Assembly (NCBI GenBank): GCA_965237485.1
Contig: CBDEFQ010000006.1
Span: 273,506-337,505 of the forward strand
DNA length: 64,000 nucleotides
Source: Candidatus Poriferihabitaceae bacterium
GTDB taxonomy: Bacteria; Pseudomonadota; Gammaproteobacteria; Arenicellales; Poriferihabitantaceae
Direction: 5' to 3'
The translations under genes and the position numbers were made by a program. Every line of letters begins with the position of its first letter. The first letter of the stretch is position 1. This document shows, in pieces, positions 2,914 to 54,807 of the stretch. The notes below the pieces were generated by a model. That model saw only the letters and a program-made list of their open reading frames with translations, had not been told where the DNA came from and searched no databases.

Positions 2914-3747
2914 TTAACTATATGATACGGCTAGTTGCATGCGATGCACAACCAGGCTCGCTAACTCTTCAATCGACATGGCCGTGGAGTCAGCAAAAGG
3001 AATGCGGTACTTTTTGAAAAAAGCATGAGCTTGGCGCACTTCGTTTTGGCATTGTCCGAGTTTTGAATACTGGCTGTTCGGTCTACGGGCTTCACGTATT
3101 TTGTGTAACTGTATTGGGTCAATCACTAAACCAAAAATTCTTTGCTTTGCCTCAACTAAGGGCTCAGGTAACATGCCTTTTTCGAAATCATCATCAGCAA
3201 TGGGGTAATTGGCGGTCTTGAGTCCATAATGCAAGGCCATATACAAGCTTGTGGGTGTTTTGCCTGCGCGCGATACACCGACTAATATTAAATCTGCCTG
3301 CGTATATCCTTCCATGCGCACGCCATCATCATATTTCATTGAAAAGTTAATTGCGTCGATACGATGCATATAGCCTCCCCCTTCATTGATACCGTGCGAC
3401 AGCCCGGTGACATGCGAGGAATCAGATTTTAGCAAAGCTTCCATCGATGGGATAAATGGCTCAAATAAATCCAGCACTACTGCGTTAGATTGCTCAATGT
3501 GTTCCTTAAATTTAAGGTTGGTAAACGATACAAATACCAAAGGACGAACACCACTTGTCTGATACGAATGATTAATTTGTTTTATGCAGCCTTTCACCTT
3601 ATCATCCGCGTCCACGAAGGGGATGGTATGGCGTTCAAAGTTGATCGTAGGGAACTGCGATAATAGTGTATTGCCCATTGTTCCAGCTGTGATGCCGGTC
3701 CCATCCGATATAATATACACTGGCCGCGTGGCCGCTTTATTAGACAT
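2914..3747 (-). CDS. ppsR: PEP synthase regulatory protein (kinase/pyrophosphorylase) PpsR
   Basis: 277 aa with the DUF299 pattern ([22 protein letters not shown]). It is divergent from ppsA, as in other gammaproteobacteria. Confidence 0.9.
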
Positions 3748-6420: not shown

Positions 6421-6559
6421 GAGACCGCAGCATAACGTCGCGAGCGAAGATAAGACAAGGCAAAAAGGGGCGAAAAAGCGCAGTTTATAACTATAAATGA
6501 GCATTTTGAGCCCCTTTTTAACGCCGTATTATCGAGCACAGTAGTTATGCTGCAGTCTC
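6421..6559. mobile_element. 139-bp MITE (family 2), copy A
   Basis: Terminal inverted repeats GAGACCGCAGCATAAC / GTTATGCTGCAGTCTC. It is flanked by the direct repeat TTATT (6416-6420 and 6560-6564). About 92% identical, in inverse orientation, to 41475-41614. The interior forms a long imperfect hairpin. Confidence 0.8.
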
Positions 6560-6734
6560 TTATTTGCATTTATTGTTTCAGTTCGCTAGTTAAAACTATA
6601 CACCTTAGTGCAAGGCTTTAGCTGCTACACAGATAGGTTAGTCTGTTCAGATGAACGATCAGAGCAGCAGCTATACGGTAAGCAGTTAACAGCTCACATA
6701 GTTTGGGTAACGAAATAGCTTCATTGCGCACGTT

Positions 6735-21359: not shown

Positions 21360-21689
21360 ATGAGTCAAAAAGATATTCAACACATTGATGACAATGGCAC
21401 TGGCTTAGTTGTAGAAACCGCTAAGCCAAAGCTTAAAAAACCGCCGATGTTTAAAGTGGTGATGCTTAATGACGACTATACACCCATGGAGTTTGTAATT
21501 TTGGTGTTAGAAAACTTGTTCCGTTTAGATCACGAACTCGCTATGCAAATTATGCTCAACGTACATCAGAAGGGCAAAGGTGTATGCGGGGTATATCCGC
21601 ATGAAGTGGCTGAAACTAAAGTCGCACAAGTGTCGGAACTCGCCCGCTCTAATGAGCACCCATTGCAATGCACGCTTGAGGAGGCCTAG
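21360..21689 (+). CDS. clpS: ATP-dependent Clp protease adaptor ClpS
   Basis: 109 aa with the pattern [19 protein letters not shown]...VH.KG. Confidence 0.93.
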
Positions 21690-21826
21690 TGGTCCTTCAA
21701 TTTAATAATTGCGGGTCCAGAGCCCAAGAGCCGGTGCAGTGCAAGGCGCAGCTCGTAGGCAATGGTTGTTCCATTGTCAAGAGCTGCAACGCTGAATCCG
21801 TAATTATCAGATTGTAGGACCACTAG
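21686..21826. repeat. palindromic (MITE-like) element filling the clpS-clpA intercistronic gap
   Basis: 11-bp perfect termini: CTAGTGGTCCT (21686-21696) and AGGACCACTAG (21816-21826). The arms align for about 50 bp around a central CAATGG-ttgtt-CCATTG, and the left arm carries an extra stretch of about 24 nt. There is only one copy in this window. Confidence 0.6.
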
Positions 21827-21828
21827 TT

Positions 21829-24078
21829 ATGTTATCTAAGAATATTGAAGCAGCACTTACCAGTGCGGTAAGTAAGGCTCAGGAGTTAAAACATGAATTT
21901 GTCACAGTAGAGCATTTACTGTTCGCCATTGCTGATATCGAGTCTGTGCGATCGCTTATACATAGTTGCGGCGGTAGTGTAGATAAGCTTAAGGAAGACC
22001 TTGAACGCTTTTTAAGCGACATGATGCCGATGTTAGAAGAGACAGAAGAACTTGAAACGCAGCCGGGTATTGGCTTTCAACGAGTATTACGACGCGCTAT
22101 TTTACACGTGCAAAATTCAGGGCTGAAGGAAGTTCAGGGTGCCAACGTGTTGGTTTCCATCTTGAGCGAGAAAGATTCGCACGCAGCTTATTATTTGAAT
22201 TCTCAAGACGTAACTCGTTTTGACGTTGTGCGTGAAATCTCACACGGTATCGTCAATATCAGTAATGAAAATCCGCAAATTGAACATCAGACCGACCAAG
22301 AAGGTGAGTTTGGTGATCAAGGTGGCAAGAAAACTGCGCTTGAGTCTTATACCGTCAATCTAAATGAACTCGCCCGTCGAGGCAAAATTGACCCATTAAT
22401 TGGGCGGGAAAAAGAATTGCAGCGCACTGCGCAAATTTTGTGCCGCCGCCGTAAAAATAACCCTCTGTTTGTCGGTGAAGCAGGCGTTGGTAAAACGGCG
22501 TTAGCAGAAGGTTTGGCGCGCTTAATCGTTAAGGGCGATGTACCTGAAGTACTTGAAAGTGCCACTGTATATTCCTTAGATATAGGTGCCTTATTGGCGG
22601 GCACCAAATACCGCGGCGATTTCGAAGAGCGCCTAAAGGCGGTGATGAATGAACTTAAAAATGCGGATGACGCCATTTTATTTATCGATGAAATTCACAC
22701 CATCATTGGCGCAGGTGCGGTGTCTGGCGGGGCTTTAGATGCCTCGAATCTGCTTAAGCCGATGCTCGCCAATGGTGATATGAAGTGCATGGGCTCCACA
22801 ACCTATCAGGAGTATCGCAATATCTTTGAAAAAGACCGCGCCTTGTCGCGACGCTTTCAAAGCATCACTATTGAAGAGCCAACTATTGAAGAAGCGGTGC
22901 AAATTTTGCGCGGCTTAAAATCGCGCTTTGAAGAGCACCATAAAGTCAAATACACAGCACCTGCTTTGCGCAGTGCAGTCGAATTAGCAGCGCGTTATCT
23001 AAACGAGCGTTTTTTACCTGATACCGCGATTGATGTAATGGATGAAGCCGGAGCGAAGGTTCGTCTGGCACCTGCAGCCAAGCGCAAGAAAACAATTGGT
23101 GTAAAAGAGGTCGAAGCCATTGTTGCCAGTATGGCGCGAATTCCACCTAAGCAAGTTTCTACTGAAGACAAAAAGTCTTTAGCAAATTTGGAGCGGGATT
23201 TGAAAATGGTGGTATTCGGTCAAGATAAAGCTATTTCTACTTTGTCATCGGCGATCAAGATGTCGCGGGCCGGCTTGGGTGATAAAAATAAGCCCATTGG
23301 TTCATTTTTGTTTGCTGGTCCTACCGGCGTAGGTAAAACAGAAGTCACAAAGCAATTAGCCCACACAATGGGTATCGAGTTTTTACGTTTTGATATGTCG
23401 GAATACATGGAGCGGCATACTGTTTCCCGCCTAATTGGAGCCCCTCCAGGCTATGTGGGGTTCGACCAAGGAGGCTTATTAACCGACGCAGTAAACAAGC
23501 ACCCTCACGCCGTTTTGTTGCTTGATGAGATTGAAAAGGCGCATCCTGATCTGTTCAATATTTTATTACAAGTGATGGACTATGGGACGCTCACCGACAA
23601 CAACGGTAGGAAAGCGGACTTTAGAAACATCATTATTGTAATGACGACTAACGCAGGCGCCGTCGATGCGGCGCGCGGTACGATGGGCTTTGTAGAGCGT
23701 GAAGTAGAACTAGATAATTTTGAAGCAATTAAAAAGGCCTTTACGCCAGAATTTCGTAATCGCTTGGACGCAATGGTACATTTTCAACCGCTTGATGAAC
23801 CTACGATTATGCATGTCGTCGGCAAGTTTATCCTTGAACTCGAGCAGCAACTTGAAGACAAACAAGTGGGCTTAACCGTAGATAAGAAAGCACGCGAATG
23901 GCTGGCAGAAGAAGGCTACGATAAATCGATGGGTGCCCGGCCGATGTCGCGTGTTATTCAAGAACATATCAAACGACCATTAGCTGAAGATTTGCTATTT
24001 GGTGAATTAGTGCGCGGAGGCCAAGTAACAGTAACGGTCAAGTCTGGCAAGCTTAAGTGCATTGTTGAGGCTAAGTAA
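21829..24078 (+). CDS. clpA: ATP-dependent Clp protease ATP-binding subunit ClpA
   Basis: 749 aa with two AAA+ modules (GEAGVGKT, GPTGVGKT) and N-terminal HEFVTVEHLL. Confidence 0.95.
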   Translation: MLSKNIEAALTSAVSKAQELKHEFVTVEHLLFAIADIESVRSLIHSCGGSVDKLKEDLERFLSDMMPMLEETEELETQPGIGFQRVLRRAILHVQNSGLKEVQGANVLVSILSEKDSHAAYYLNSQDVTRFDVVREISHGIVNISNENPQIEHQTDQEGEFGDQGGKKTALESYTVNLNELARRGKIDPLIGREKELQRTAQILCRRRKNNPLFVGEAGVGKTALAEGLARLIVKGDVPEVLESATVYSLDIGALLAGTKYRGDFEERLKAVMNELKNADDAILFIDEIHTIIGAGAVSGGALDASNLLKPMLANGDMKCMGSTTYQEYRNIFEKDRALSRRFQSITIEEPTIEEAVQILRGLKSRFEEHHKVKYTAPALRSAVELAARYLNERFLPDTAIDVMDEAGAKVRLAPAAKRKKTIGVKEVEAIVASMARIPPKQVSTEDKKSLANLERDLKMVVFGQDKAISTLSSAIKMSRAGLGDKNKPIGSFLFAGPTGVGKTEVTKQLAHTMGIEFLRFDMSEYMERHTVSRLIGAPPGYVGFDQGGLLTDAVNKHPHAVLLLDEIEKAHPDLFNILLQVMDYGTLTDNNGRKADFRNIIIVMTTNAGAVDAARGTMGFVEREVELDNFEAIKKAFTPEFRNRLDAMVHFQPLDEPTIMHVVGKFILELEQQLEDKQVGLTVDKKAREWLAEEGYDKSMGARPMSRVIQEHIKRPLAEDLLFGELVRGGQVTVTVKSGKLKCIVEAK

Positions 24079-35812: not shown

Positions 35813-36302
35813 AGTAGATATTGAATTAATCTCATTGGGCTCAATTCCCCGCCCATTGGGGCGATATATAGATTCACGATGTAGAGTGCGTGAATTCAAC
35901 TTTATACCCCGTTGCTTGGGCCGGGGTTGTTCATTTTCACGAAAATGAGAAGGTCAGAATTTAGGGTACCTGAAAATAGCTATAGTCTGATCTTCTGACA
36001 GATATTGATCCAAAACCAGTGTTTACTATGGGTTGTTTGCCTTGGAGCGCGAATTATTGTGCCTGCTACACCTGTAATTATTTACAGCTAGTATCGCTGC
36101 CACTATATAGGTTAAACTAATGCATTAAGCGAATTAGGACTAGTAAAGAGACGAGAAAATACTATCTAAATTTGTTGCATCACTTTTATTAAGGTTACAG
36201 GAGTATCAAAATTCAAACTTTCTGGAACCAAAAAACTTGGGTTGTACTTTGCAAGTGGTATCGGTGTTCTTGATTACGCAACATTGGGTATGGACTTTTT
36301 GT

Positions 36303-37229
36303 CTAGCAAGTTGACTCATTGTCGTTCCACACGATATATCGATGATTAGCATTAGCCCATTCGTCGTCAATTTCAATCAGAATGGCACTGACTAATCGTA
36401 ACCAAGCCTCTCGGTTAGGAAAGACTCTGACCAAGCGGGTTCGCCGCTTAAGTTCTTGTTGAACCGTCCGTTCAATGCGGTTGGAGGTTCGCATTTTCTT
36501 TTGGTGTCTATCTGGCAAGGCAAACACATTTAACCCTTCAGGCACATTGTTTTCTAGCCACTGCGCCAAGTGAGCATGCTTTTCCTGGTACTGGCTCACA
36601 AGGACTTTTAGATTAACCTGAGCAGCTGCCATATTGGGTGCATTCCAAACACTACGCAGCTCACCACCAATGCGCTGCTTGATCTTGTGATTGGGGGCAT
36701 GATGCATTGCATTCTGCGCCAGATGAAACTGGCAACGCTGCCAAGGTATACCTGGGAACACTGCCTTTCTAGCGGCTTTTAAGCCACTGTGATCATCACT
36801 GACAATAAACTCAATACCATGTATGCCCCGGTCAACCAAGCCTTTGAGGAACGCTCGCCAGTTAACCTCGGCTTCATTAAGCGCCATTGCCGTTCCTAAT
36901 ACGCAACGCCGTCCACAAGGCAATACACCCACCGCACTCAACACCGCCATATCAATCACTTGGTGGCCCTCACCCACCTTTTCATAACGCGCATCAAGGA
37001 TTAGGTAAGAGACTTTACCCAACGGACGGTCACGCCAGACTTTTAACGCCTCATCCATGCTCTGGTTAGCCCGTGAGACCGGTGTAGAGGAGATGCTTTC
37101 AATACCCATGCTCTGCATGACTTTTTCGACTCGGCGCGTGCTAACGCCCGTCACGTACATTTCAGCAACGGTCAGCATCATCGCACGTTGGCTGCGTAAG
37201 CCGCGTTCTAGCGATTGAGGGTAAAAAGG
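36303..37229 (-). pseudogene. IS256-family transposase, C-terminal about 305 codons (copy 2)
   Basis: Colinear with copy 1 from YPQSLERGLRSQRAMML... to ...NDNESTC. It is interrupted at the TAAAAAGG duplication. Confidence 0.88.
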
Positions 37230-37558
37230 GTAACTTCTCAATAACCCGTGGCAAAGCTGGCGCGTTCCATAATGATATCTGGCAGAGGATCAATATGTTG
37301 CTCACCGATACCAAGCCGATGGGTCAGGTAGTGCCAGAACGATATATCCAGTTTTCGGCAGGTCTTTTTCAAACTGGCAAACGTGTCCCGACACTGCTGG
37401 CCAGCATCGCTGCGGGTGGAGCCACTCACTTTTCGTTTTTTCACGTAATCGCGAATGTCTGTTTCACTGCCATTGGTGTGTAACGGAATATCTGGTCGAT
37501 CTAGCACCAACAGTCATTCTGCTTGATTCGCATGGATTCGTTTGAGCGTCTGATTTAA

Positions 37559-37721
37559 CCTAGATAAATCAGTTAAAACACGAAAGTCCATGCAAGCTCT
37601 TGATGCACCTAGCAAAATCAAAAAAAACCTTATCACCAATAAGGTGACCGCGACTTTTTTGATTTCACTATGCACTTCAATTGCTTACATGTCTTTTCCG
37701 CGTTTAACTGATTTATCTAGG
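37559..37721. mobile_element. 163-bp MITE (family 1), copy A
   Basis: TIRs CCTAGATAAATCAGTTAAA.. / ..TTTAACTGATTTATCTAGG. 5-bp TSD TTTAA (37554-37558 and 37722-37726). By eye it is identical to 54481-54643. Confidence 0.88.
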
Positions 37722-38879
37722 TTTAATGTTTGGTAGCATGTCTGTTGAGTGAAGATTTCATCGAAACGCTGCTCAAGTATTTTACGTTGGTTCTCGCAAG
37801 GCTGGGTTTTATACTCTTTAACGCCCGATAAAAGCACCAGACTTGGTCGCGTATTTTAGCAATGCCCTGCCGGTGTCCCTCGTTCAGCGGTATCAACTTA
37901 TGGATTAAGTGCTCGGTGTGTATCCAACACAAGGCATGAGCCAAAATGTTAAATTGCCCTGCATCATCACTGACGACAGCGATGTCATCACACAGACCAT
38001 GATGCAAAATACTACCAAGTAATGCCCCTTCGGTGGTGATACGTCGGTGACGTGCCTTAATGATCAACAGGCTATCGAGCATTTCAAGCCAGTCATCCTC
38101 GTTGGCAATACGGCGTTCCCGGTGCTCAGTTACAGCGGCTAAGGCTTGCTTTGGCAATCCATGTTGTTGCCTATAATTCAACGCACTTTGACTCAAACGA
38201 TAATCCGTATTGCCAGCCCTTAATAGCGGTAGGAAGTTAATTCGACTTTTTGATTGAGTACTTTTAAACCACGCAAACAAGTCATTACCAATGTGCGTTA
38301 CATAGCCATTTTTGCCCTGATGGCGAGCACCACTATCGTCCACGGTCACGTAAGACGATGCGCTCAGAGCAACGCTTAGTAACGCCTCTTTCTCAGCATG
38401 AAAGGGCTCTTTAGCACTGATCAGTATTGGGTTAATTTGTCCCGAAGAAATATCAATTCCCCACTCTCGCAACTGTTCCAACAAGAGTGGTTGCGTGGTT
38501 TGACAATGATGATATTGATAGAGAATATAACTGACCAGACGAGGCCCATAATGTCGCCCTGCCACGGATGTCGGTAACTGGCCTTTGAGCTTTTTATTGT
38601 CTGGCGTTACCCAATGCGCTAAACGATAGCGGGTGGTATGAACCTTGATAAGCAAATCTTGCACTACAAAATCCCGATAGCCTTTAAAGCGAGAACCTTC
38701 GGGCACGGACTTCGCTGGTTCAATAACCAGATTTAGGTCAATTGACAGCCTTGGTGTTTTCTTTGCCTTGTTCGACCCAGCTCGCTGCTTAGGTTTGTCG
38801 CTAGAAGATGAACGTTTTGGCTCTGTTTTCTTATCCATATTACCACCCTTAAAAGTAGGCTGCCTCTTCTGCCCCTTAA

Positions 38880-40056
38880 GGGCTTGTCGGATAATTAATA
38901 GAATACGTGAGATAATATGGGCTGATTCTAGTCAGCCTGCAATTTTGAGCAAACGTCATCAAAGCCAACTGTTCCTAACCTTAGATTCTCTGGTTAGCTC
39001 TGAACATCCCTACCGTAAACTCGATGAGCTATTATGTTTTGGTGCATTGAGTAAACCCTTCTCTAAAATATATGCCACCCGTGGCCCTAAAGGCCGAGGT
39101 GTTGAGTTCGGCTTACGTGCCTTGGTGCTTCAGTTCATGGAAGATTTAAGTGATAGAGAAATGGAGCGATACTTATCAGAGAATCTGGCCGCTAAGTGGT
39201 TTTGTGATTCAGGACTGGAACAGAGCACTCCTGATCATAGTTACTTTGGTGATTTTCGCTCACGCATTGGAACCAGGGGTATGATGAATTTATTTGACCG
39301 TGTTCGGAGCGGGTTAGTTTCAATGGGCTTAGTACGAGAAGTATTCACATTTGTCGATGCCAGCCAGTTGGTCAGTAAGCTAACCACTTGGGATGATAGA
39401 GATAAGGCGATAAAGATGGGATTAGAGGAGTTCAACAATAAGACAGTTGATAAAGTTGCGGCGGACAAGCAAGCACGGTTTGGGTGCAAGGGAAATAGCA
39501 AATATTGGTATGGTTACAAAGAGCATGCATCAGTGGATATGCAAAGTGGCTTGATCAATAAAATAGCGACCACCTCGGCTGAGGTAACGGATGCAAGCGG
39601 CTTAAAGCATGTTTGCCCTAAGTCGGGTGCTGTTTATGCGGACAAGGGTTATTGCGTGAGCCCGGCCAAAACCACGCTCAGGCGCAACGGTTGCCATGAT
39701 GCAACAATCAAGAAGAACAATATGCATGGCAAGAATAGAGACAAAGACCGTTGGATTAGCAAAATTCGTTCACCATATGAGCGAGTGTTTGCTCATCGCA
39801 ATAAGCGAGTTCGTTATAAAGGGTTGGCTAAAGTCCAGTTCCAAGTTGGAATCAGGGGCTTATGTTTTAACCTTAAGCGATTAATGGCATTGGGAGTTGA
39901 ACGAGTTGAATTGGTGCCGGCCTAGGGATAGATCCGTCTATTGGTGGCAAAATGGCTGCTAATAGACGGTTTATTGCACAAAAAACGCGTTGCTGAGCAA
40001 ACTAAAAGCGACTTCGGCGAAAACCCTGTTTGAAATTGTATTAACCGACGAGCCCC
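38880..40056 (+). mobile_element. IS5-family insertion sequence (1177 bp) inside the IS66 transposase gene
   Basis: IRL GGGCTTGTCGGATAATTAAT and IRR (reverse complement) GGGGCTCGTCGGTTAATACA. It is flanked by TTAA (38876-38879 and 40057-60), which fits the IS5 YTAR target. Removing the IS and one TTAA restores the IS66 reading frame (INILKGQKRQP). Confidence 0.88.
38945..39925 (+). CDS. IS5-family DDE transposase
   Basis: The tracked ORF (from 38768) reads in from flanking DNA. The likely start is TTG 38945 (MSKRHQSQLFLTLDSLVSSEHPYRKLDELL, DUF772-type N-terminus). The DDE_Tnp_1-type C-terminus includes YADKGY and RSPYERVFAH. Confidence 0.8.
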   Translation: MSKRHQSQLFLTLDSLVSSEHPYRKLDELLCFGALSKPFSKIYATRGPKGRGVEFGLRALVLQFMEDLSDREMERYLSENLAAKWFCDSGLEQSTPDHSYFGDFRSRIGTRGMMNLFDRVRSGLVSMGLVREVFTFVDASQLVSKLTTWDDRDKAIKMGLEEFNNKTVDKVAADKQARFGCKGNSKYWYGYKEHASVDMQSGLINKIATTSAEVTDASGLKHVCPKSGAVYADKGYCVSPAKTTLRRNGCHDATIKKNNMHGKNRDKDRWISKIRSPYERVFAHRNKRVRYKGLAKVQFQVGIRGLCFNLKRLMALGVERVELVPA

Positions 40057-40484
40057 TTAAGGATATTGATTTCATCTTTAAGCAATGCTATTTCTTCGTC
40101 CTGTTGTTGAACTCGCACCAACAGCTGCTCCACTAGCACCCGCAACATTTTTACTGCGGGGGTTTGTTCTTGTTCAGGAATGTCGGGAATAGAGGGTAGC
40201 TTACTCAAGGTCTTAAACGTCCGTTAACTGGATAGACCTTAGTGTACCATCGGTTTTGAAAGTCCAATTTTGCCTTCTCAACTGCGCCACAACGAACGTT
40301 AAGAAGACACCCCTGAACGTTCCTTAAGCGATCTTTGTTATTAGCGTAAAGGTGCCTACAACCACCCTGGAACTCAACCTAAATCGAGTCACTCGACCAC
40401 GTTGAATTACCTTCCTTTTAGCGTAAAACCCGGTCAAGAAATATTTTGTTTTATTTTACCTGCCACGGGTTATTGAGAAGTTAC

Positions 40485-40750
40485 TAAAAAGGTTCATCAA
40501 CGTGTTTAGCGGTCTTTGGGATACGCAGATTGAGCGTACCGGCTTGCGTATCGATACGCTTATCTTGGTAGCCATTGGCAAACCCTGGCCGGTCTTGACT
40601 ATGCTCATAGTGTGATGCGCCTGGAAACGGCTCTCTTTCAATCTTCATCGCCTCATTGAGCAGTGCGGTGAGCACGGGGCGCATGGCATCGGGGCCTTCT
40701 GAGATGTGTGTTCCACTACTACGTCAAATACGTTATTGTTTGATTGGGTC
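40485..40750 (-). pseudogene. IS256-family transposase, N-terminal fragment (copy 2)
   Basis: MRPVLTALLNEAMKIEREPFPGASHYEHSQDRPGFANGYQDKRIDTQAGTLNLRIPKTAKHVDEPF ends exactly at the IS66 TSD. A candidate upstream ATG at about 40750 (MTQSNNNVFDV) is out of frame with it. Confidence 0.75.
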
Positions 40751-40870
40751 ATTTGGGTGTCTCCAGTATTTTAATTGCTTAAAACAGGGAACGCACAAAT
40801 GGCTCAACTTACAAGACACCAAGATAGAAAATTTGAATAAATCGGAGTTAAAGGGGTCAGACCCCTTTAA

Positions 40871-41019
40871 CTCATCGAGTTTACGGTAGGGATGTTCAGA
40901 GCTAACCAGAGAATCTAAGGTTAGGAACAGTTGGCTTTGATGACGTTTGCTCAAAATTGCAGGCTGACTAGAATCAGCCCATATTATCTCACGTATTCTA
41001 TTAATTATCCGACAAGCCC
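40871..41019 (-). mobile_element. truncated left end (about 149 bp) of a second IS5-family copy
   Basis: This is the reverse complement of 38880-39028 (IRL through ...PYRKLDE). Identity stops abruptly at 40871. Confidence 0.85.
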
Positions 41020-41468
41020 ATAATACATTCGTATCTGCTACAGACAAAGCTACGGTGCAACGAGAGGCGCAGCTAATGTTGGGGATATATGTTCTTTTGG
41101 GTTGCTTGTCATGGTATTACCAGAACAATACATTGTTGTTTGTGTGGATATTGCCTTTGTTAATAGGCCAGCCGTTTTTGCGCTTATTTTTATTGGCAGA
41201 ACATGAGGGGTGCGCGAACTCGAACAATATGTTTGAAAATACCCGCACGACACTAAGTAATTTTGCCGTGCGCTTTATCACTTGGAATATGCCTTACCAT
41301 ACAGAGCATCATGTTTTTCCTGCGGCACCGTTTCACCAATTACCTAAGTTACATGAGTTTACTAAACTGCATTTGCAAGTCGTCGCACCCGGTTATGGCA
41401 GGTATCACTTAGCTTGGATAAAGGCCCGACTTTTAGGTAAGGCCTCGGGGGAGTCTGAAAATAGCTGA
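41020..41468 (+). pseudogene. fatty-acid desaturase, 5'-truncated
   Basis: Only the C-terminal part is present (LAEHEGC..., third His box MPYHTEHHVFP). The reading frame is open right up to the IS5 end at 41019, and there is no N-terminal half. Confidence 0.75.
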
Positions 41469-41474
41469 TTAATA

Positions 41475-41614
41475 GAGACTGCAGCATAACTACTGCGCTC
41501 GATAATACGGCGTTAAAAAGTGGCTCAAAATGCTCATTTACTAAGCATAAACTGCGCTTTTTCACCCCTTCTTGCCTTGTCTTATCTTTGCTCGTGACGT
41601 TATGCTGCAGTCTC
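41475..41614. mobile_element. 140-bp MITE (family 2), copy B
   Basis: TIRs GAGACTGCAGCATAAC / GTTATGCTGCAGTCTC. It is flanked by TTAATA (41469-41474 and 41615-41620). It is the inverse-orientation homologue of 6421-6559. Confidence 0.8.
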
Positions 41615-51489: not shown

Positions 51490-51562
51490 GGATTGCAAAG
51501 CACTATCACCTCGACTAACCTTCGCCTCCCTTTTAAGCTCTAGAAGCGGTTTGAAGGGATTC

Positions 51563-51632
51563 GCAGAGGTGCCAGAGTGGTCGAATGGGCTTGCCTGGAG
51601 TAAGTGTGTCTTTACGGGCATCGGGGGTTCGA
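51563..51632 (+). pseudogene. truncated tRNA-Ser copy 1
   Basis: It lacks the 3' T-stem and acceptor strand. It has G2C in the acceptor stem and a 2-nt deletion in the anticodon loop (CCTGGAGTAAG versus CCTGGAAAGTAAG). Confidence 0.85.
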
Positions 51633-51736
51633 CAAAATCGTCTGGAACGATTTTACACGAGCAAAGCGAGCCCGAAGGGTGAAACCCAGGAAGGGTTGAA
51701 TAATCCCACCCGCAAGGGGAGGGGTGAGAACACAAC

Positions 51737-51808
51737 GGAGAGGTGCCAGAGTGGTCGAATGGGCTTGCCTGGAAAGTAAGTGTGTCTTTACGGACACCGG
51801 GGGTTCGA
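51737..51808 (+). pseudogene. truncated tRNA-Ser copy 2
   Basis: 72 nt, matching the intact gene except one substitution in the variable arm (GGACACC versus GGGCACC). It lacks the 3' 18 nt. Confidence 0.85.
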
Positions 51809-51912
51809 CAAAATCGTCTGGAACGATTTTGCACGAGCAAAGCGAGCCCGCAGGGTGAGACCCAGGATGGGTTGAATAATCCCGCCCGCAATGGGGGGGG
51901 TGAGAACACAAC

Positions 51913-52004
<92 letters not shown>

Positions 52005-53916: not shown

Positions 53917-54807
53917 ACTTGTTGATGATCTTAAAGCCCTTAAACTACACGGTACGGCACCATGCTTACCTGAGTTGATAGATTCGCCTCGTTCTAAAGT
54001 AACGTTGCAATCTGGGTTAATTAAATTGATGGATGCCGAGCGAACGGACCGAGAAGTGAGGTGGCTAAATTCCCTCATCACCGTGATTTACAGCAATTTG
54101 ACTTTACCCAGAGCGAAGTTGAACCAGCGCTCATCGAGGATTTGTCTCAGGCTGACTATATGGACAGAGCCCATAACCTCATCTTTGTCGGTGGCACTGG
54201 AACAGGCAAAACCCATTTAGCTACGGCCTTAGGCATTAAAGCCATTCATTCAGGTCATCGGGTTCGGTTTTACAATGTGGTGGACCTGGTTAATCTGCTG
54301 ATCAAAGAACAGCAGGATGAGAAGCAGGGGCGGCTAGCACGAATTATGCAACCGTTAGATGCGGTGATATTCGATGAGCTGGGATATTTACCCTTCCCCG
54401 CATCGGGTGGCGCACTATTATTCCACCTGATCAGCAAGCTATACGAGAAAACCTCCATCGTGTTTACCACCAAGCTTAATCCTAGATAAATCAGTTAAAA
54501 CACGAAAGTCCATGCAAGCTCTTGATGCACCTAGCAAAATCAAAAAAAACCTTATCACCAATAAGGTGACCGCGACTTTTTTGATTTCACTATGCACTTC
54601 AATTGCTTACATGTCTTTTCCGCGTTTAACTGATTTATCTAGGTTAATGTCAGTGAATGGGTGCAGGTATTTGGCGACGAGAAAATGACCACGGCTTTGC
54701 TCGACAGAGTGACTCATCATTGCTCAATTATTGAAACGGGTAACAACTCATATCGATTCAAGCAGTCTAGTGCTAAAGCAAAGCTCAAGACTGTCACTAA
54801 AAAATAA
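53909..54807 (+). pseudogene. istB: IS21-family helper ATPase IstB, frameshifted and MITE-disrupted
   Basis: The N-terminal frame (MLELVDDLKALKLHG...AERTDREVR) switches at about 54058 to the frame with AKFPHHRDLQQFDF...GGTGTGKTHLA. About 8 codons usually found between these motifs appear to be missing. The MITE splits TTKLN / [25 protein letters not shown]. Confidence 0.8.
54481..54643. mobile_element. 163-bp MITE (family 1), copy B
   Basis: Same sequence and orientation as 37559-37721. 5-bp TSD TTAAT (54476-54480 and 54644-54648). Confidence 0.88.

Follow-up and report, generated by a model that had tools for sequence, protein, structure and literature searches.

The genes clpS and clpA lie in tandem on a 64,000-nucleotide stretch (positions 273,506 to 337,505 of contig CBDEFQ010000006.1) of a Candidatus Poriferihabitaceae genome, hereafter the window, and are separated there by a palindromic element that fills the space between them. 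Here, we report that this spacer is very probably a 141-nt copy, decayed and internally deleted, of a MITE (miniature inverted-repeat transposable element) that was inserted into a junction ancestrally 2 to 3 nt wide. The element belongs to what appears, from the copies compared, to be a previously undescribed and unnamed MITE family (approximately 271 nt, with 35-nt terminal inverted repeats and two long internal hairpins).

Results

The clpS-clpA gap of the window is 139 nt (21690-21828; 30 nt in Escherichia coli K-12, agreeing with the figure of about 30 nt in the first-pass annotation, which was made from the sequence alone). That annotation had described a palindromic element at 21686-21826 as filling the whole gap, with the clpS stop codon inside its left terminus; its coordinates and description hold (Table 1), nearly all of the 139 nt being one imperfect palindrome. 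ClpS is 100% identical to protein P0001, which carries Pfam PF02617, as do its homologues. The clpA ATG is the first start codon 3' of an in-frame stop and agrees with the conserved N terminus (MLSKNIEAALT...) of all relatives. In order, the junction reads GAGGAGGC-CTAG-(TGGTCC...GGACCA)-CTAG-TT-ATG.

Table 1. Features of the clpS-clpA junction (window coordinates)
Feature	Position	Strand	Remarks and evidence
clpS coding sequence	21360-21689	+	109 aa; open reading frame (ORF) list; C terminus ...CTLEEA-stop, not altered by insertion
Ancestral clpA Shine-Dalgarno (SD) sequence GAGGAGG	21678-21684	+	Within final clpS codons; compare SD position in relatives
MITE copy, internally deleted, 141 nt	21686-21826	.	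Profile match, blastn to L018, empty site in relatives
Entry terminal inverted repeat CTAGTGGTCCTTCAATTTAATAATTGCGGGTCCAG	21686-21720	+	Holds clpS stop TAG; TAA TAA in second frame
clpS stop TAG	21687-21689	+	Inside entry terminal inverted repeat
Remnant of internal hairpin 1	21721-21791	+	Fold, alignment to full-length copies, family structure
5' arm of hairpin 1, unpartnered	21721-21747	+	Fold and alignment to full-length copies
Apical (inner local) hairpin	21748-21787	+	Fold
Exit terminal inverted repeat CTGAATCCGTAATTATCAGATTGTAGGACCACTAG	21792-21826	+	Inverted-repeat analysis
AGGA in exit repeat	21816-21819	+	9 nt before clpA ATG; pairs with TCCT 21693-21696
clpA coding sequence	21829-24078	+	749 aa; ORF list

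The outer arms (35 nt each) are 83% complementary, the two repeats differing at 6 of 35 positions. The asymmetric bulge that had been noticed between them was found as approximately 27 unpaired left-side bases; they are left unpaired because an internal deletion of approximately 127 nt removed the partner arm of hairpin 1, and the bulge is the remnant of that hairpin. Folding also bears out the long hairpin that had been expected to sequester the clpA ribosome-binding site: the RNA minimum free energy of the element is -73.3 kcal/mol, against -42.7 +/- 4.1 kcal/mol for 200 dinucleotide shuffles (z, -7.46; 0/200 as stable), a near-continuous repeat helix of approximately 29 bp is predicted in the clpS-clpA transcript, and the computed unpaired probability of the AGGA in free mRNA is 0.03. 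The claim that this AGGA (GTAGGA in its exit-side context) is the only SD-like sequence is correct within the gap itself and overlooked the ancestral GAGGAGG at the helix base, which now lies 144 nt 5' of the clpA ATG in the linear sequence, yet one base from the base of the helix.

Downstream of the helix the sequence reads TTATGTTA (5 T in 8), and other family copies are without T-rich exits. A scan for intrinsic terminators made no call at the element, the scanner's loop-size rule excluding such a structure. Rfam gave no covariance-model match at E <= 10 for the window copy and, for full-length copies, only sub-threshold generic hairpin matches (15 to 21 bits, against 46 to 196 required). 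No promoter-like (sigma70-like) site was found on the plus strand between 20800 and 22200. On the minus strand, a sigma70-like hexamer pair (TAGATA-16-TACAAT, 21811-21838) overlaps the exit repeat and the clpA start and points antisense into the element; the number of sigma70-like sites in the region is not above that in shuffles.

ClpS homologues 83 to 87% identical to that of the window led to contigs that share the window's gene order (Iron_traffic gene, Fe-S biogenesis gene, clpS, clpA, thioredoxin-like gene). The first-pass annotation had looked to empty clpS-clpA sites in relatives as the mark of an insertion, and to equally long gaps of unrelated sequence there, or a true clpA start farther downstream with its own SD sequence, as signs against one. 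The element is missing from the clpS-clpA gap in all five relatives examined: the gap is 3 nt in the four closest relatives of the same gene order (GAGGCC TAA ACA GTG in L001; GAAGCA TAG AAT ATG in L002, with L048 and L050 alike) and 40 nt, with its own AAGGAGG, in the fifth (L051). The ATG at 21829 is conserved, and blastn alignments of the window to L001 and L002 break at the element ends, stopping at 21689 and restarting at 21828-21830. In the relatives, the clpA SD sequence (GAGGAAG or GAAGAGG) lies in the final clpS codons, 7 to 9 nt before the clpA start.

Excising the element together with one CTAG (or one TA) gives GGCCTAGTTATG, with a 2-nt gap; the insertion added a net 137 nt and, by duplication, one CTAG (or TA). 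By this reconstruction, the insertion point is the C/TA/G of the clpS stop codon, and the insertion regenerated the stop, leaving the ClpS C terminus unaltered, while moving the strong ancestral SD sequence 137 nt away and setting the repeat-borne AGGA at -9 from the clpA ATG. In L051, an IS1595-type transposase gene (1348-2316) lies between the Iron_traffic and Fe-S biogenesis genes, upstream of the clpS-clpA gap (3318-3359); this insertion and the 40-nt gap mark the neighborhood as a repeated landing zone and the tight junction as not universal.

A degenerate repeat pattern retrieved true homologues from two GTDB genomes (L008 and L018) and from 17 JGI or GenBank metagenome contigs. L018 aligned with the window copy (blastn) at 87.6% identity over 105 nt and 88.6% over 35 nt, and nhmmer with a family profile (alignment A1, built from 12 full copies) recovered the window copy at E 1.6e-24. 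The multicopy status that had been proposed for checking is upheld across genomes, where the family occupies about 12 independent, unrelated sites (gammaproteobacterial genomes and metagenomes), and not within the 64-kb window, where a pattern search, a repeat finder, short-word blastn, and the family profile all gave a single copy. The exact 29-mer of the left repeat had 0 matches in GTDB genomes, which means that the window genome is no species representative there. Neither the plasmid collection nor the viral contigs held a family match, and a literature search with the repeat sequence returned unrelated PCR primers only. By its shortness (below approximately 500 bp), its terminal repeats, its presence at many loci, and the sites that are empty in relatives, the element behaves like a bacterial MITE.

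The canonical family member, 271 nt long, opens with a repeat of approximately 35 nt (consensus YTAGTGGTCCTTCAAYYTRATAATTGCGGGTTCAG), which long hairpin 1 follows; a short center (CCCGAAGGG or CCCTTCGGG) separates this from long hairpin 2, and the second repeat closes the element. Because the whole element is nearly symmetrical, a transcript enters by CTAGTGGTCCTTCAA and exits by TTGAAGGACCACTAG in either orientation. Deletion variants occur (approximately 180 nt in L040; smaller deletions in L045 and L028), and the window copy is without approximately 127 nt matching L018 3660-3786. Its deletion took out the 3' arm of hairpin 1 together with hairpin 2. The three-helix structure is paired in 95.2% of cells across the family, with double-sided changes in 30/98 pairs, against 9.4 +/- 2.1 in column shuffles (0/500) and 4 to 9 with slid partners; the repeat helix is kept in 12/12 full copies (96% of cells paired). 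The element has no coding capacity: the small ORFs that cross it are not shared from copy to copy, insertions and deletions setting the copies apart.

The flanking genes at the other sites were confirmed by Pfam. Five of the about 12 sites are tight co-directional junctions completely filled by the element: clpS-clpA in the window, nuoK-nuoL in L018, nuoC-nuoD in L025, L026, L029, L030, L031, and L034, aroK-aroB in L023, L028, and L035, and a GH3 hydrolase gene followed by an MscS-like channel gene in L024 and L045. Two further copies sit at stop codons, one (L027) at that of a PNP_UDP_1-family gene (phosphorylase superfamily) and one (L036) at that of an enoyl-CoA hydratase gene; those in L021 and L037 are plainly intergenic, and that in L008 interrupts an ORF. 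A solo exit repeat (L043 1346-1382; same locus, L022 4850-4886) stands between dsbB and a class-II DAHP synthase gene, with the dsbB stop TGA inside the repeat remnant, followed by ...GGTTGAAGGACCACTAG and the ATG of the DAHP synthase gene. As read from the sequence, this repeat may have been retained, on loss of the remaining element, as the ribosome-binding site of the DAHP synthase gene.

At the five junctions and the solo repeat, the exit repeat puts (G)AAGGA (AGGA in the window) 6 to 9 nt before the start codon (9 nt for clpA, 6 nt for nuoL and nuoD, 7 nt for aroB and the DAHP synthase gene, and 8 nt for the MscS-like gene). The upstream ORF ends at CTAG or 5 to 6 codons into the entry repeat (...SGPST-stop, via the TGA of TGATAA), its stop lying between -5 and +21 relative to the entry repeat at 5/5 junctions, and all tight-junction copies leave the old SD sequence directly 5' of that repeat. 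On the entry side, GAAGGA is lost (GAAGAA or GCAGGA) in 4/4 sites checked (L018, L024, L025, and L031, a small number), and the exit side keeps it.

The family ends read CTAG/TTAG...CTAG/CTAA (YTAG...CTAR), the bases flanking TA always being Y and R. Both ends of the window copy read CTAG, consistent with duplication of TA or of a 4-bp YTAR, which are indistinguishable because CTAG is palindromic; part of it could belong to the repeats. IS630 inserts at the TA within 5'-CTAG-3' with TA duplicated, according to Tenzen and Ohtsubo (1991) as cited in PMC2170065, and IS5-group elements duplicate 4 bp of YTAR, an example being MITEPsy1 of Pseudomonas syringae, whose target is CTAG or YTAA with 4 nt duplicated (PMC3189936). 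Of the original suggestion of an IS630/mariner-type MITE, the MITE stands and the ends are compatible with IS630; judged by those ends, an IS5-group origin fits equally well. No parent transposase with matching repeats (YTAGTGGTCCTTCAA) was found in the fetched loci, the insertion sequence (IS) copies of the window, plasmids, or viral contigs.

The copy in L008 (4901-5170) is full length and disrupts an ORF for a TolB-like beta-propeller protein. The frame is restored when the entire 270-nt block is cut out, whereas a TAG remains in frame when the element is cut together with one copy of TA or YTAR; thus, the gene had been a pseudogene beforehand, or the duplication model is not complete. The window shows no depletion of CTAG (166 observed versus 153 expected under a Markov model), and its scarcity was rejected as the cause of landing on stop codons; the junction bias is not explained by scarce targets, because CTAG is not rare there.

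The repeat pattern also matches the B12-binding domain of MetH (VHDIGKNIVxVVLQCNNFEV) in Undibacterium, Burkholderiaceae, and others, giving false positives in repeat-based searches; the matches in L009-L017 and L019, which are the MetH coding motif VVLQCNNFEV, were discarded as family copies. Among candidate IS ends, L046 was a chance match within a large ORF, and L022/L043 and L033/L041 were solo repeats instead.

Filled and empty sites differ between sister species. In the window organism, clpS-clpA is filled. In species A (L018 and L002-L007), clpS-clpA is empty and nuoK-nuoL is filled; in species B (ERZ25767047: L001 and L058), both are empty, the nuoK-nuoL junction (L058/L059) reading TAA TGAGT ATG. 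L018 and L002-L007 were taken as one species because L018 NuoK is 100% identical to P0123, whose source label is the same as that of the ClpS of L002-L007. The species A nuoK-nuoL junction is filled in 18/18 contigs read, from several samples or metagenomes, by a copy that is identical in every contig shown (L053-L057 and L018) and is therefore fixed; use of the ATG that adjoins this copy would lengthen NuoL of species A by three N-terminal residues (MTD). Since the filled sites differ between sister species, the family has moved within the lineage. Host GC content is 45 to 47% for the window, L018, and L001/L002 and 58 to 64% for the remaining hosts.

The window carries other repeats and mobile DNA (IS family labels are from reading of the ORFs, not from Pfam). 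A second, unrelated palindromic MITE-like element of approximately 172 nt occurs at 37554-37727 and 54476-54647 (99% identical), with termini CCTAGATAAATCAGTTAAA...TTTAACTGATTTATCTAGG, its own internal hairpin, and flanks suggesting an A/T-rich duplication of approximately 5 bp (TTTAA / TTAAT). An IS-rich patch (1-1001 and 36272-41050) holds an IS256-like transposase ORF (36303-37241; inverted repeat copy at 43-1001, 99%), IS66-like fragments (37238-38838), and an IS5/IS4-like ORF (38768-39925) bounded by 156-nt inverted repeats (38876-39031 / 40868-41023); none of these copies is IS630-like, and their ends are unlike those of the family. Three tandem 176-nt units (51562-52002) each start with the 5' part of tRNA-Ser, only the last being a complete tRNA-Ser(GGA) (51913-52002); the arrangement resembles the repeated, partial copying of a tRNA gene that integrating elements leave. 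A sequence of approximately 140 nt occurs twice, inverted and 35 kb apart (6421-6560 and 41474-41614; 93 to 97% identical).

Discussion

The explanation that we favor overall, with some confidence, combines insertion of a MITE with preservation of clpS-clpA coupling by RNA unfolding; taken by itself, the coupling mechanism is tentative, its chances a little short of even. On the clpS-clpA transcript, the two repeats would form the helix that buries the AGGA, with the clpS stop codon on the opposite strand. Because the stop codon lies in the same helix, a ribosome finishing clpS would have to melt the helix base, exposing the AGGA and the start region, and clpA translation would stay dependent on clpS translation. 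In the computation, the unpaired probability of the AGGA rises to 0.51 to 0.67 when bases through 21696-21702 are held single-stranded, a constraint that models a ribosome with TAG 21687-21689 in its A site and an assumed footprint. ClpA output and the ClpA:ClpS ratio would probably be below those of the sister species, ribosome occupancy at the clpS stop would also keep the helix from acting as a weak terminator, and the same geometry would recur wherever the family fills a tight operon junction. RNA-unfolding coupling is known over comparable distances, for example, in rpmI-rplT at +52 nt (PMC12548453).

Several points weigh against this explanation. The mechanism rests on thermodynamic prediction and the assumed footprint, and the AGGA is a weak SD sequence, its duplex with the anti-SD being worth -3.9 kcal/mol versus -12.2 kcal/mol for the displaced SD sequence at the reconstructed ancestral (empty) site (-5.8 to -6.2 kcal/mol in the four relatives with 3-nt gaps). 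The clpA start codon is predicted to be paired with downstream coding sequence whether the element is present or not. A hairpin of -73 kcal/mol may refold faster than 30S binds, which is a general objection to the unfolding model in a review of coupling (PMC12548453). The window copy is old and probably an immobile fossil, because its repeats differ at 6/35 positions and it is internally deleted. Its copy number in its own genome covers 64 kb only, multicopy status resting on other genomes. For the junction bias, survivorship (insertions elsewhere having been lost) and a real compatibility with junctions are candidates, and the enrichment could be pure survivorship. That AAGGA is conserved needs no selection for an SD function, since a repeat kept for transposase binding accounts for it fully.

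Net attenuation or uncoupling without rescue, in which a weak, sequestered site replaces a strong, coupled one and ClpA falls much lower relative to ClpS, is rather unlikely in our estimate. The near-complete predicted pairing of the AGGA and the drop in SD strength speak for it, and a tight gap is not essential for clpSA, as the gaps of E. coli and L051 illustrate. In a variant of this account, the long duplex may also be a substrate of RNase III, which cleaves stems of the length of the repeat helix in Correia repeats (PMC2649163; PMC10969869), or a weak intrinsic terminator, given the T residues that follow it; that U-tract is poor, however, and the terminator scan, whose loop rule cannot handle the structure, made no call. 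The insertion would then be a tolerated, slightly deleterious or tuning mutation. Against this stand the intact clpA ORF, which is still under selection, and the fixed family copies before nuoD, nuoL, and aroB, where strong polarity should be lethal or costly. An unlikely reading is that of a split ribosome-binding site, where the closed hairpin serves as a compact spacer, the GAGGAGG acts across the helix base on the ATG, and the AGGA is irrelevant. The required geometry, GAGGAGG-C-(helix 21686-21826)-TT-ATG, is directly in the sequence, the old SD sequence stands in the same place at every tight-junction copy, and this sequence is both strong (the -12.2 kcal/mol duplex) and half accessible, with an unpaired probability of 0.52 (measured over 21679-21685, one base off 21678-21684). 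Hairpins likewise shorten the spacing from 22 to 5 nt in T4 gene 38 and from 27 to 11 nt in gene 25 (PMC3014915). The intervening structure here is much bulkier than those of T4 (141 nt, or 271 nt in full copies), though, and may not fit between platform and P site, and the effective spacing of approximately 3 nt is below the optimum unless the helix end frays.

It is quite improbable that the element is a neutral passenger, with clpA expressed independently from a promoter in clpS or in the element or through direct loading of 30S onto a helix that breathes. Co-transcribed operon passengers are many among bacterial MITEs (PMC3184786), and the age and decay of this copy would suit such a role, but the plus strand of the region offered no promoter-like site, a transcript begun inside clpS would still hold the whole hairpin, and the predicted sequestration is strong. 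That the element is not mobile DNA at all, and instead a native cis-regulatory RNA of clpSA or an assembly artifact, is scarcely credible. Its single copy in the window speaks for such a reading; a native clpSA structure is nonetheless rejected by the empty sites in all five relatives, homologous copies lie at unrelated loci, and Rfam holds no match. Clean CTAG...CTAG boundaries with both flanking genes intact are the mark of transposition, not of a chimeric join.

Beyond the window, the family may be "operon-safe," its architecture suiting translationally coupled stop/start junctions, an idea suggested by the sequences that we regard as speculative and somewhat doubtful. Two of the three frames would meet stops in the entry repeat (C-TAG; TAA-TAA or TGA-TAA), (G)AAGGA would be supplied by the exit repeat 6 to 9 nt before any start codon adjoining the TA target, and the repeat helix would rejoin the junction halves in RNA, coupling being rebuilt by ribosome-driven unfolding or a split ribosome-binding site. 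The arrangement is compatible with downstream expression, because essential genes (nuoD, nuoL, and aroB) follow fixed copies. If true, this would explain why 5 of the about 12 surviving sites are at tight junctions in essential operons (nuo, aro, and clp) and why a solo exit repeat was retained as the DAHP synthase ribosome-binding site.

ClpS sets the substrate choice of ClpAP between delivery of N-degrons and other substrates, and the ClpS:ClpA ratio matters for that reason. At this locus, a natural insertion has turned a 3-nt coupled junction into a 139-nt structured one, with sister species as the uninserted control. Together with nuoK-nuoL, nuoC-nuoD, and aroK-aroB, the clpS-clpA junction is a natural experiment on how much structure and distance coupled junctions tolerate, and bears on whether a transposon can carry the stop, SD, and helix signals that keep an operon working. 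Such elements also make "intergenic" distances appear longer and, in metagenome-assembled genomes, can lead the prediction of operons and start codons astray.

By analogy, the nearest functional relatives of the family would be the Correia and ERIC elements, co-transcribed palindromes that affect mRNA fate. The family is a member of neither, since hosts, length, and architecture differ, Correia elements being set apart here by description and not by sequence. Correia elements (CREE/nemis) resemble it as short non-coding palindromic MITEs with long and internally deleted size classes; their target duplication is TA-centered, with which the ends here are compatible, and they are often co-transcribed with flanking genes, as the element here would be. 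They are confined to Neisseria, measure 104 to 157 bp, have a 26-bp Correia repeat, and carry an IHF site and outward promoters, whereas the family described here occurs in Gammaproteobacteria, is 271 nt long, and has two extra long hairpins; its window copy has an SD-like motif in place of a promoter-like sense-strand site. A TAGTGG start is presumably common to both, a lead only. In mRNA, the stems of Correia repeats fold into hairpins to which RNase III binds (PMC2649163; PMC10969869). ERIC/IRU elements of Enterobacteriaceae are likewise imperfect palindromes (approximately 127 bp) inside transcription units and flanked by TA, and act on mRNA fate through structure and the unmasking of RNase E sites (PMC3184786; PMC10969869). 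Their sequence, length, and hosts differ from those of the family, their effects are described on mRNA stability, and regular filling of 0- to 5-nt stop/start junctions by ERIC is not reported in the reviews cited here.

Among MITEs grouped by transposase, those of IS630/Tc1/mariner type share a CTAG preference that fits the YTAG...CTAR ends, and no IS630-family transposase with matching repeats was found. The CTAG/YTAA target of IS5-group MITEs fits as well, but MITEPsy1 is 100 nt long with unrelated 18-nt repeats, the IS5/IS4-like copy in the window has different ends, and no IS5-type parent was found. A 2024 review of prokaryotic MITE functions covers promoters, IHF sites, RNase III and RNase E effects, and gene inactivation, and the words "ribosome" and "Shine" are absent from it (PMC10969869); repeats bearing a ribosome-binding site do exist, for example, Neisseria REP2 (PMC3184786).

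In T4 genes 38 and 25, a hairpin between the SD sequence and the AUG shortens their spacing (PMC3014915), and here the helix base has the old SD sequence on one side and the ATG on the other. The hairpins of T4 are native and small, whereas mobile DNA of 141 nt intervenes at clpS-clpA. In RNA-unfolding coupling (rpmI-rplT, MS2 coat-lysis, and f1 VII-IX), the downstream ribosome-binding site is locked by a strand that ribosomes on the upstream ORF cover (PMC12548453). Those are native structures that evolved in place, whereas at clpS-clpA, on the model favored here, a transposon would have supplied the structure ready-made.

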